Shown: positions 21,730 through 22,827 of the stretch, one piece after another
Numbering within the stretch: the first letter of the stretch is position 1
Layout of the letters: each line of letters starts with the position of its first letter
Sequence record: SRR31156797_25125
Strand: one strand, 5' to 3'
DNA: 32,509 bases
Position numbers and translations under genes: made by a program
Notes under the pieces: model-generated
Seen by the model: the letters and a program-made list of their open reading frames with translations, nothing else
Database searches by the model: none
What the model was told of the DNA's origin: nothing

Positions 21730-22827
21730 TTATTTGGCAAGAAATTTGGGAATCAGGGTATCTAGTCCGCATTTGAAATCATAGAGAAATGCTCCGTGAC
21801 CAAATGAGGTGTGCAGGCAATGGTGTTCAACTGGTTTTTGATTTTCCAAAAGGGCTTTGCGAATTTTGTCCATCTCCTTTTCAGGGTAACGCCAGTCAGA
21901 ATCAAAGCTCACCAGAAGTGTCCTGCCTGTAATTTTTGAAAAGGCCTGTCTCAAGCTGCCATGCTCCCTTTCAAGATCAAAGTAGTCCATGGCTTTGGTG
22001 AGGTAAATAAAGGCATTCGGGTCAAAAAAACCTTTTGGACTTTTTTCAATATCTTGTAAAAATTTCTGAATAGTGAACTCAGCCTCAAGGTTATAGTCGG
22101 GTCTCTCTTTGTCGTTAATCAACGTGAGTCCAAATTTTTTGTCCATCACCTCTCGGCTCATCCATATGAGCATCCCAAACTGCGTCCCAAGACTAATACC
22201 TGCCGTTGGTGGCCCTTTATCATAATAATTACCATTATTGAACTGCGGATCGAGTATAATTGCCTGTCTCATAACATGCCATAAGGCAAGGTTGTACGCA
22301 GAGGTTTTTGCTGTGGCGCCCATGATTATGGAGGAACGAGCCTTCTCAGGATAACGTGCCAACCACTCCAGAACTTGAAATCCTCCCATACAGCCACCAA
22401 TAATGCTGTGAAACTGTGTGATTTCAAGGTGGTCAGTTAGCAATTTCATTGCCTCCACCATGTCTCCTATGGTGATGATGGGAAACCTTAGTCCATAGGG
22501 GCTGTTTGTTGAAGGATCAAGGGATGCAGCACTGGTTGAACCACCAAATCCGCCAAGTGATGCAATACAAAGAATGAACCATCGATTGGTATCCAAGGCC
22601 TTGCCTGGACCAATGGCCATGTTCCACCACCCCTTAGTTTTGGTGTTTTTGTTAGTTCCTGCTGCATGAGCAGTTGAGGTGAGCCCGTGGCAAACCAGAA
22701 TGACGTTGTCTCGTTCTTTGTTCAGGGTTCCGTACGTTTCATAAGCAAGATCAATACTGGGCAGAGAAGATCCGCTGGTAAGTTTGAGACATTGACTGAA
22801 ATGCTTTATTCTTCGTTGTACTTTCAC
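21730..22827 (-). CDS. MetX (homoserine O-acetyltransferase)-fold alpha/beta hydrolase or acyltransferase with a variant active site
   Basis: LAYETYGTLN..DNVILVCH, GWW..IGPGKALDT, FPIITIGDMV, FDPNAFIYLTKAMDYFD, SDWRYP; the nucleophile elbow is GGCMGG and the His motif is GHGAF. Confidence 0.85.
   Translation of the reverse strand: MKVQRRIKHFSQCLKLTSGSSLPSIDLAYETYGTLNKERDNVILVCHGLTSTAHAAGTNKNTKTKGWWNMAIGPGKALDTNRWFILCIASLGGFGGSTSAASLDPSTNSPYGLRFPIITIGDMVEAMKLLTDHLEITQFHSIIGGCMGGFQVLEWLARYPEKARSSIIMGATAKTSAYNLALWHVMRQAIILDPQFNNGNYYDKGPPTAGISLGTQFGMLIWMSREVMDKKFGLTLINDKERPDYNLEAEFTIQKFLQDIEKSPKGFFDPNAFIYLTKAMDYFDLEREHGSLRQAFSKITGRTLLVSFDSDWRYPEKEMDKIRKALLENQKPVEHHCLHTSFGHGAFLYDFKCGLDTLIPKFLAK

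Follow-up and report, generated by a model that had tools for sequence, protein, structure and literature searches.

Homoserine O-acyltransferases of the MetX family, i.e. homoserine O-acetyltransferases (HTA) and homoserine O-succinyltransferases (HST) such as 2pl5, 2b61, 6ioh and 8f2l of the Protein Data Bank (PDB), are two-domain α/β-hydrolase-fold proteins with a lid. According to the accessible parts of two sources, their chemistry is of the ping-pong type (PMC6937278) and homoserine and serine serve as acceptors in the family (PMC13683966). The tunnel of mycobacterial MetX has a polar lining of Thr61, Arg227, Tyr234 and Asp351, where Asp351 is part of GHD and lid helix αL3 carries Arg227 and Tyr234 (PMC6937278). 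For MetXS of Cupriavidus, Arg238 and Asp367 are named ‘homoserine-binding residues’ beside the triad Ser168-Asp333-His366 (PMC13683966). Here we analyzed a DNA stretch of 32,509 nucleotides from sequence record SRR31156797_25125 (the whole stretch is called the window below), which encodes a MetX-fold enzyme with a Cys nucleophile, termed MetX-C, in a gene cluster for a RiPP, a peptide made by the ribosome and modified after translation. Judged from sequence and gene context, MetX-C probably goes back to a homoserine O-acyltransferase and takes part in a proteusin-like RiPP pathway as a tailoring enzyme. That it acts as an acyltransferase on the precursor peptide appears to be about an even chance (probability roughly 0.5).

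The MetX relatives DcsE and CefG have a Ser-His-Asp triad. DcsE is the L-serine O-acetyltransferase of the D-cycloserine pathway (3vvl) and CefG is deacetylcephalosporin C acetyltransferase (2vat), so the MetX scaffold can be recruited to natural-product pathways with other hydroxyl acceptors (taken here from the PDB titles); these acceptors are small molecules, however, and neither enzyme is known to be tied to ribosomal peptides. The esterases E22 (5jkf) and MekB (5e4y) use the MetX fold for hydrolysis, and we know of no RiPP context for them. Polyhydroxyalkanoate (PHA) synthase PhaC is an α/β-hydrolase-fold acyltransferase with a Cys-His-Asp triad and an acyl-enzyme in the form of a thioester derived from acyl-coenzyme A (acyl-CoA). 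On the RiPP side, the selidamide GNATs transfer acyl groups directly, without a covalent intermediate. These N-acyltransferases perform acyl-CoA-dependent acylation of NHLP/Nif11 RiPPs (PMC8784127). Acylation of leader-bearing, proteusin-type precursors and the occurrence of a GNAT of roughly 300 residues in MetX-C clusters connect them with our system, but their fold is unrelated to that of MetX-C. The words ‘homoserine’, ‘hydrolase’ and ‘MetX’ do not occur in the main text of the selidamide papers, including PMC8784127, and no MetX-like enzyme linked to RiPPs was found in the literature searched, a scope outside which subscription journals and supplements fall.

The gene for MetX-C and its diagnostic motifs are located as follows (numbering of the window protein):

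21730..22827, minus strand: MetX-C, MetX-fold enzyme of the Cys type, 365 residues, predicted triad Cys146-Asp311-His344, GTG start, TAA stop.
22390..22392, minus strand: TGT codon of Cys146, the putative nucleophile within GGCMGG (GGSMGG in canonical MetX).
22162..22191, minus strand: lid helix LGTQFGMLIW, with Thr, Met, Ile and Trp at the places of canonical Arg215, His219, Thr221 and Tyr222.
21883..21900, minus strand: SDWRYP with the catalytic Asp311 and with Arg313 at position Asp+2.
21793..21798, minus strand: codons CAC GGA of His344-Gly345 within GHGAF, with Gly in place of the Asp responsible for binding the amine of homoserine.

Alignment by phmmer placed the window motifs opposite GGSMGG, GHDSF/GHDAF and LARMVGHITYLS of 2pl5 from Leptospira, and they paired likewise with the corresponding motifs of Haemophilus 2b61. 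An earlier sequence-only reading of this gene had described the Cys elbow, the GHGAF motif and the altered lid helix. Elbow and GHGAF motif proved exact on the translation and pair with GGSMGG of solved MetX and with GHDSF/GHDAF of 2pl5 and 2b61, respectively, the helix was found at the place listed above, and the comparison with characterised MetX confirmed the substitutions. That reading also gave the lost Arg and the Asp after the His as homoserine binders of MetX, which is how the accessible part of PMC13683966 names them. As it had further stated, the triad Asp of SDWRYP and the triad His are retained, both being kept in Cys-type and canonical sequences. The gained Arg313 and the tie to a methylase described below are points beyond it.

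The fold assignment agrees between sequence and predicted structure. MetX-C matched 2pl5 with E 1.2e-76 in phmmer. Its only Pfam match was Abhydrolase_1, and among the NCBIfam models it passed NF001209 (380 bits, cut-off 331) but stayed below the cut-offs of TIGR01392 (343 bits, cut-off 500) and of the succinyl model NF047916 (345 bits, cut-off 560). An AlphaFold2 model computed with 24 relatives as input reached a mean pLDDT (predicted local distance difference test score) of 87.5 and a predicted template modelling (TM) score of 0.88. When this model was searched with Foldseek, 2b61 (TM 0.91), 2pl5 (TM 0.87) and also mycobacterial MetX were retrieved, with 34-37% identity to MetX structures over the alignment; DcsE and CefG gave TM values of 0.91 and 0.84. 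E22 and MekB were less similar (26% and 23-24% identity). Both the sequence and the model contain the α/β-hydrolase core and the helical lid of MetX. MetX-C thus has the MetX fold with a predicted intact Cys-His-Asp triad; besides triad Asp and His it keeps the Thr of HxLTG and the GGxxGG elbow. The kind of triad and the superfold are those of PhaC, but a specific relationship to PhaC was not detected, the sole related NCBIfam match being a PHA depolymerase model with 18.6 bits.

The homologue search returned 5329 matches at E ≤ 0.001 among 6991 candidates, of which the best 120, with 46-73% identity, were examined. GGC[MFLVI]GG was present in 119 of them, and GHG and DWRYP in all 120. Microvirga and Desulfarculus baarsii were named isolates with a Cys-type gene among the matches. 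Since the best homologues share GGC.GG almost without exception and the substitutions are fixed in 132 Cys-type as compared with 162 canonical rows, the Cys variant is not due to chance or a sequencing error. For the tree, 295 MetX-type sequences were pooled and 240 rows above 60-62% identity were dropped, which left 55 rows. A single branch with a value of 100 in the Shimodaira-Hasegawa-like approximate likelihood-ratio test (SH-aLRT) set the 35 rows with Cys apart from the 20 with Ser (quick IQ-TREE search, midpoint root for drawing only). According to this tree, Cys-type MetX is one clade with a single origin. The column counts, canonical rows first, were:

Position 146: Ser in 162 of 162; Cys in 132 of 132.
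Position 178: Gln in 151 of 162; His in 120 of 132.
Position 182: Phe in 156 of 162; Leu in 122 of 132.
Position 215: Arg in 162 of 162; Ala, Gln, Thr or Ser, with Arg in 0 of 132 (Thr in the window).
Position 219: His in 162 of 162; Ala, Met, Ile or Leu.
Position 221: Thr in 158 of 162; Ile, Phe or Val.
Position 222: Tyr in 158 of 162; Trp in 130 of 132.
Position 225: Glu or Asp; Arg in 109 of 132.
Position 256: Tyr in 162 of 162; Phe in 128 of 132.
Position 313: Leu in 97%; Arg in 132 of 132.
Position 345: Asp in 162 of 162; Gly in 132 of 132.

Common to both groups were Asp311, His344 and, in HxLTG, Thr50. Besides the exchange of Ser for Cys, the Arg and Asp that bind homoserine and the pocket residues Tyr, His, Thr and Tyr of MetX have thus given way to small or hydrophobic residues, and on the acceptor side of MetX-C all homoserine ligands are lost and the predicted pocket is hydrophobic.

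The donor side points in another direction. In MetXS of Cupriavidus necator (CnMetXS), the succinyl-enzyme is reported to have its carboxylate stabilised by Arg335; acetyltransferases have Leu at this position, and a Leu/Arg exchange switches donor specificity (accessible part of PMC13683966, citing Bastard et al. 2017). Arg stands at Asp+2 in both proteins, as Asp311-Trp-Arg313 in the window and as Asp333/Arg335 in CnMetXS, and Leu is found there in 2pl5 and 2b61. Based on the CnMetXS numbering and on this Leu, Arg313 occupies the succinyl-specificity position, a feature that MetX-C has in common with the MetX-G2 succinyltransferases. We therefore infer that the donor side gained a residue selecting acyl groups that end in a carboxylate, and the donor would probably be a carboxy-acyl-CoA, namely succinyl- or malonyl-CoA. 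A scan of 151 genomes with NF047916 gave no match above the cut-off; its best five (509-531 bits) read DWLYP, the acetyl type.

Gene fusions provided the strongest evidence for cooperation of MetX-C with the radical S-adenosylmethionine (SAM) methylase of its cluster. A search of 1.84 billion representatives yielded 11431 relatives at E ≤ 0.001. The Cys type was found in 20 of the best 150, which were examined, and several of these were about 1030 residues long. In P0242, P0246 and P0251 a full-length TIGR03975 domain (1-606 of 606) is joined by about 40 linker residues to a MetX domain of the Cys type, and P0243 represents part of such a protein. The 23 longer relatives comprised 14 fusions of a radical SAM domain (PF04055) with MetX, 828-1064 residues in length (P0242, P0246, P0251, P0392-P0397, P0399, P0400, P0403-P0405), and nine MetX-MetW fusions. 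TIGR03975 was confirmed in the four scanned proteins (the three full-length ones and P0243), and the others were assigned by PF04055; the P0397 fusion sits on an 8.07-Mb contig. All 14 radical SAM fusions had GGC.GG and DWRYP, with GH[GA] in 11 and GHD in three (P0403-P0405), and all nine MetW fusions had GGS.GG and GHD. Thus, canonical MetX fuses with MetW, whereas MetX-C fuses with a radical SAM enzyme.

Fusion together with translational coupling to the methylase could also mean that MetX-C is a non-catalytic partner, i.e. a scaffold or a peptide-binding subunit of the methylase. Such a protein is known from bottromycin biosynthesis, where BotH is non-hydrolytic and has the α/β-hydrolase fold. 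The (near-)invariance of Cys146, Asp311 and His344 over 132 rows and the fixed new Arg313 are not expected of a scaffold, which makes this explanation extremely unlikely.

Paralogy was studied in the genomes of relatives rather than in the window's own genome. Four of five genomes with Cys-type loci contained a higher-scoring MetX elsewhere (418-478 as compared with 343-369 bits), and these second copies read GGS.GG, GHD.F and ARM..H.TY; only a fragment was found in the fifth genome. With a clade profile, the scores of 401 genomes from a single class formed two peaks: four genomes (about 1% of this sample) scored 558-584 bits, all of the Cys type, each with a second, canonical match of 407-415 bits, and the next best genome reached 436 bits with Ser. 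The sample includes one unpublished genome (G245), which contributed one canonical match only. MetX-C accordingly is, in the relatives, an extra paralogue beside canonical MetX and not the copy of the methionine pathway.

These data bear on the possibility that MetX-C acts on a small molecule, either by making an acylated metabolite or co-substrate for the radical SAM enzyme or in methionine/SAM recycling. Close coupling and sometimes fusion with a SAM-consuming enzyme would fit such a role, as would the passing of the NF001209 cut-off (380 against 331 bits). On the other hand, the homoserine ligands identified in the accessible parts of PMC13683966 and PMC6937278 are lost (Arg215 and Asp345 in all 132 rows, Tyr222 in 130 of them), the TIGR01392 and NF047916 cut-offs are missed, the genomes retain a canonical MetX, and met genes were not seen near MetX-C in the window or in the examined related loci. 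A small-molecule substrate is therefore quite unlikely. The view of the sequence-only reading that the enzyme serves not methionine or SAM supply but RiPP maturation with a Cys-His-Asp triad gains support from the canonical paralogue, the RiPP loci and the methylase fusions.

The genomic context of Cys-type genes was studied in 14 loci besides the window: seven from a genome scan (at least 80 loci, with 7 Cys-type and 73 canonical among those listed), four from a metagenome scan (at least 80 loci, 4 Cys-type and 76 canonical among those listed) and three from the 401-genome sample, a composition from which no prevalence can be derived. The records belong to Rhodospirillaceae, Methylococcaceae, Stellaceae, Desulfomonile and Deltaproteobacteria or are metagenomes. 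RiPP genes, either the TIGR03975 methylase or others, were tied to MetX-C in 14 of 14 loci. The sequence-only reading had named a wide occurrence in ordinary met operons as an observation that would contradict it; the opposite was found, the Cys type being an extra, RiPP-tied copy. In eight loci (L002, L004, L005, L006, L081, L195, L196, L197) a TIGR03975-type gene lay directly upstream of MetX-C, with spacings from a 27-nt gap to a 4-nt overlap. A PoyD epimerase gene above the cut-off was present in at least 8 of the 14 loci, a GNAT gene of about 300 codons in 7, and a gene for an AprA-like methyltransferase (PF23525) in 9; L103 showed no gene of the latter kind, and neither did L005, L006, L082 and L094, where the contig stops less than 2 kb away. 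L001, at 66% identity the nearest relative for which context is available, has the gene order of the window, with the rest about 20 kb downstream behind an insert encoding resistance-nodulation-division (RND) efflux. Co-location of MetX-C with RiPP genes is kept across distant taxa.

L103, which has LpxB/LpxI neighbours, was considered as an exception and rejected, since it is a contig-truncated methylase-MetX-C fusion with 55% identity over 614 residues to P0395. Among the 401 genomes, PoyD exceeded the cut-off in five, the four MetX-C genomes and G186. The latter carries, without MetX-C, a polytheonamide-like set (L215) of PoyD, a LanM-type DUF4135 protein, an S9-type α/β hydrolase, a sulfotransferase and a GNAT.

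Thirteen precursors were found in ten loci. The leaders differed, being of the NHLP type in the window and L001, of the Nif11 type in L002, L004, L005, L081, L082, L195 and L197, and a B_lectin domain in L003. Despite this, the cores were alike, with a middle part in which Ala, Val, Thr and Glu abound and, in 13 of 13, a C-terminus made of a hydrophobic stretch followed by Thr (VVVLT, VIVIT, VIIAT, VVVAT, VVVVT and similar). In 11 of 13 cores the residue next to the GG cleavage motif was Lys, frequently with a run of His behind it; L003 and L082 lacked this Lys. Two control genomes without MetX-C but with PoyD-like genes below the cut-off had precursors ending with GDGGW or SSK, though the controls are few. 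A complex prediction for MetX-C with core residues 159-213 of the window precursor gave an ipSAE of 0.01; run without controls, it speaks neither for nor against binding.

Several peculiarities of single precursors were seen. In the window precursor the NHLP-like leader is doubled, as two stretches match TIGR03793. In the L003 precursor (L003:1087-1908, minus strand) the leader is a D-mannose-binding lectin (B_lectin) domain and the core ends with VIVLT. His runs from KGHHHH to KGHHHHHHHH directly follow the GG site in L002, L195 and L197; such natural His runs suggest metal binding at the core N-terminus. Several NHLP-like precursors ending with GDGGW are encoded in G018 (L216, L217) next to Trp-halogenase-like, TfuA-like and sub-cut-off PoyD-like genes; they represent a different RiPP family, for which a name was not found.

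The terminal Thr is the sole core feature common to all 13 precursors, and known acceptors of the MetX family are hydroxyls; its hydroxyl is therefore the likeliest acceptor of a peptide acyltransferase, with Lys1 or an N-terminal Ser/Thr as alternatives. For Lys1 the GNAT of the cluster would be a more natural enzyme than MetX-C. The conserved Thr can also be read as the residue that is cut off, in which case MetX-C would be a hydrolase (esterase, thioesterase or carboxypeptidase) working on the modified peptide, for example by removing the terminal Thr or an acyl group added by the GNAT. Esterases such as E22 and MekB do exist in the MetX family, and the NCBIfam model ‘E22 family MetX-like putative esterase’ matched with 248 bits, below its cut-off of 450. 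But the invariant Arg313 at the acyl-donor specificity position would be needless for a plain hydrolase, the cluster already contains a C39 leader peptidase, and the best sequence and fold matches of MetX-C are transferases; we regard hydrolysis as doubtful.

Conservation of both core ends, Lys1 (11/13) and terminal Thr (13/13), would be compatible with a transamidase or cyclase as well. Cys146 would then form a peptidyl thioester near the C-terminus, which would be resolved by an amine such as that of Lys1; thioesters generally favour aminolysis. The chemistry would be that of sortase or butelase, here on an α/β-hydrolase fold. However, in the precursors of L003 and L082 the cleavage motif is not followed by Lys, a one-residue follower would be unusual, and Arg313 at the donor-carboxylate position would be left without explanation. 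Transamidation therefore appears very unlikely.

For MetX-C as an acyltransferase of the precursor peptide, the following course of the reaction is proposed. The ping-pong chemistry of MetX would be retained, but with an acyl-S-Cys146 intermediate: Cys146, activated by His344 and Asp311, would attack the acyl-CoA, and Arg313 would grip the terminal carboxylate of the acyl group, probably succinyl or malonyl. The acyl group would then pass to the precursor peptide, which would enter the hydrophobic tunnel devoid of homoserine ligands and for whose backbone Gly345 would give space. MetX-C and the B12-dependent radical SAM C-methyltransferase would act on one and the same peptide. The specific combination of a carboxy-acyl-CoA as donor and the terminal Thr as acceptor is an unlikely guess in its full detail, made from the conserved residues.

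Some observations weigh against peptide acylation as proposed. P0038, a member of the Cys clade, has a Ser nucleophile (GGSTGG) with GHGAF and DWRYP kept, maybe as a natural reversion. Gly345 is not obligatory, given the three radical SAM fusions that keep GHD. The carboxylate-binding Arg of MetX is lost, which disfavours the free C-terminal carboxylate as a handle; Arg225, which 109 of the 132 rows share, is at most a candidate for a substitute carboxylate binder. E22 and MekB show that hydrolysis is possible on this fold. Finally, the link between terminal Thr and MetX-C could instead reflect shared ancestry of one family of biosynthetic gene clusters.

Relative to described enzymes, fold and chemistry of MetX-C would be known, and nucleophile, substrate class and pathway role would be new. 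Sequence sources label the Cys-type proteins as ‘homoserine O-acetyltransferase’ or ‘Probable acyltransferase’, and the former label conceals a clade with another nucleophile, another pocket and apparently another job. If the proposal is true, MetX-C represents a new class of RiPP tailoring enzymes, α/β-hydrolase-fold thioester acyltransferases coupled to a B12-radical SAM methylase, and defines a widespread family of proteusin-like clusters with PoyD, C-methylase, MetX-C, AprA-MT1-like methyltransferase, GNAT and cores of the hydrophobic-plus-Thr type. As a caution, a MetX annotation alone is insufficient for reconstructing the methionine pathway in metagenome-assembled genomes.

The gene cluster of the window around MetX-C is composed of the following features:

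29482..31032, minus strand: outer-membrane efflux protein.
28208..29467, minus strand: HlyD-type adaptor.
27497..28138, minus strand: NHLP precursor of 213 residues, with the core after AGG (residues 159-213, KSHVAANT...AVAVVVLT) ending in Thr.
25555..27402, minus strand: B12-binding radical SAM RiPP C-methyltransferase (TIGR03975, 518 bits).
24204..25571, minus strand: PoyD-type radical SAM epimerase, first copy (TIGR04517, 407 bits).
22831..24207, minus strand: PoyD-type radical SAM epimerase, second copy (TIGR04517, 499.5 bits).
20116..21708, plus strand: stand-alone AprA-MT1-like methyltransferase of 530 residues, convergent with MetX-C (PF23525, 256 bits).
19346..20119, plus strand: small methyltransferase-like protein of 257 residues (weak PF13489 and TIGR04290 matches).
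17053..19221, minus strand: ATP-binding cassette (ABC) exporter with C39 peptidase.
14163..17051, minus strand: second ABC protein.
13603..14160, minus strand: CPT-like P-loop kinase.
12711..13619, minus strand: GNAT acyltransferase of 302 residues, overlapping the CPT-like kinase gene.

The order on the minus strand is outer-membrane protein, HlyD, precursor, methylase, two PoyD genes and MetX-C, and the gaps from methylase through the PoyD genes to MetX-C are -17, -4 and 3 nt. Just 3 nt separate the TAA of the second epimerase gene from the GTG of MetX-C, as the sequence-only reading had noticed.

The 530-residue methyltransferase has an AprA_N domain, and its catalytic half matches AprA MT1 (PDB 6b39, E 1.4e-50) and 7ucl/7uci. 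Enzymes of the AprA-MT1 type methylate the α-carbon of malonyl-acyl carrier protein with the aid of a metal and occur in loading modules, also together with a GNAT. By analogy, MetX-C, the AprA-MT1-like enzyme, the GNAT and the radical SAM methylase might constitute a starter-like module that gives a branched, pivaloyl-like cap without a carrier protein. MetX-C would put malonyl from malonyl-CoA on the terminal Thr or Lys1 via the Cys thioester and Arg313, the AprA-MT1-like enzyme would methylate the malonyl α-carbon, the GNAT would decarboxylate it, and the final methyl group would come from the radical SAM enzyme. Because a malonyl half-ester or amide on a peptide would be the same kind of substrate as that of AprA MT1, the four enzymes could build such a cap; we nevertheless consider this course clearly unlikely. 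A second bold analogy is that O-acyl-Thr could serve as a leaving group like O-acylhomoserine in methionine synthesis, and elimination followed by enamide hydrolysis might then give a membrane-inserting peptide whose C-terminus is an uncharged amide. The words ‘AprA’, ‘malonyl’ and ‘homoserine’ are absent from a 2024 review of RiPP methyltransferases.

Two assignments from related pathways were ruled out. The 530-residue protein is not an Asn N-methyltransferase of the PoyE/AerE type: AerE is GenN- and PrmC-like in the accessible part of PMC9060474, and at E ≤ 0.01 the only matches of the window protein were 6b39 and 7ucl/7uci. PoyJ of the polytheonamide cluster is not an enzyme of the MetX-C kind, as it is described as prolyl-oligopeptidase-like in the accessible part of PMC9505594.

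For the 257-residue methyltransferase-like protein, a relative was not found in the PDB search. A 299-residue open reading frame adjoining the cluster (31582-32481, minus strand) has no Pfam or NCBIfam match. CPT-like stands for chloramphenicol-phosphotransferase-like; the pair of kinase and GNAT genes at the cluster edge recurs in the syntenic locus L199 and may function in self-protection or in additional tailoring. Thiamine genes flank the cluster, as does, outside it (2378-3780, minus strand), a gene for an M4 thermolysin-like protease followed by an emfourin-like inhibitor gene. An environmental bacterium is the indicated origin of the window: its GC content is 41-48%, and the best named relatives of its ThiD protein, with 70-76% identity, come from Desulfobulbales and other Desulfobacterota.

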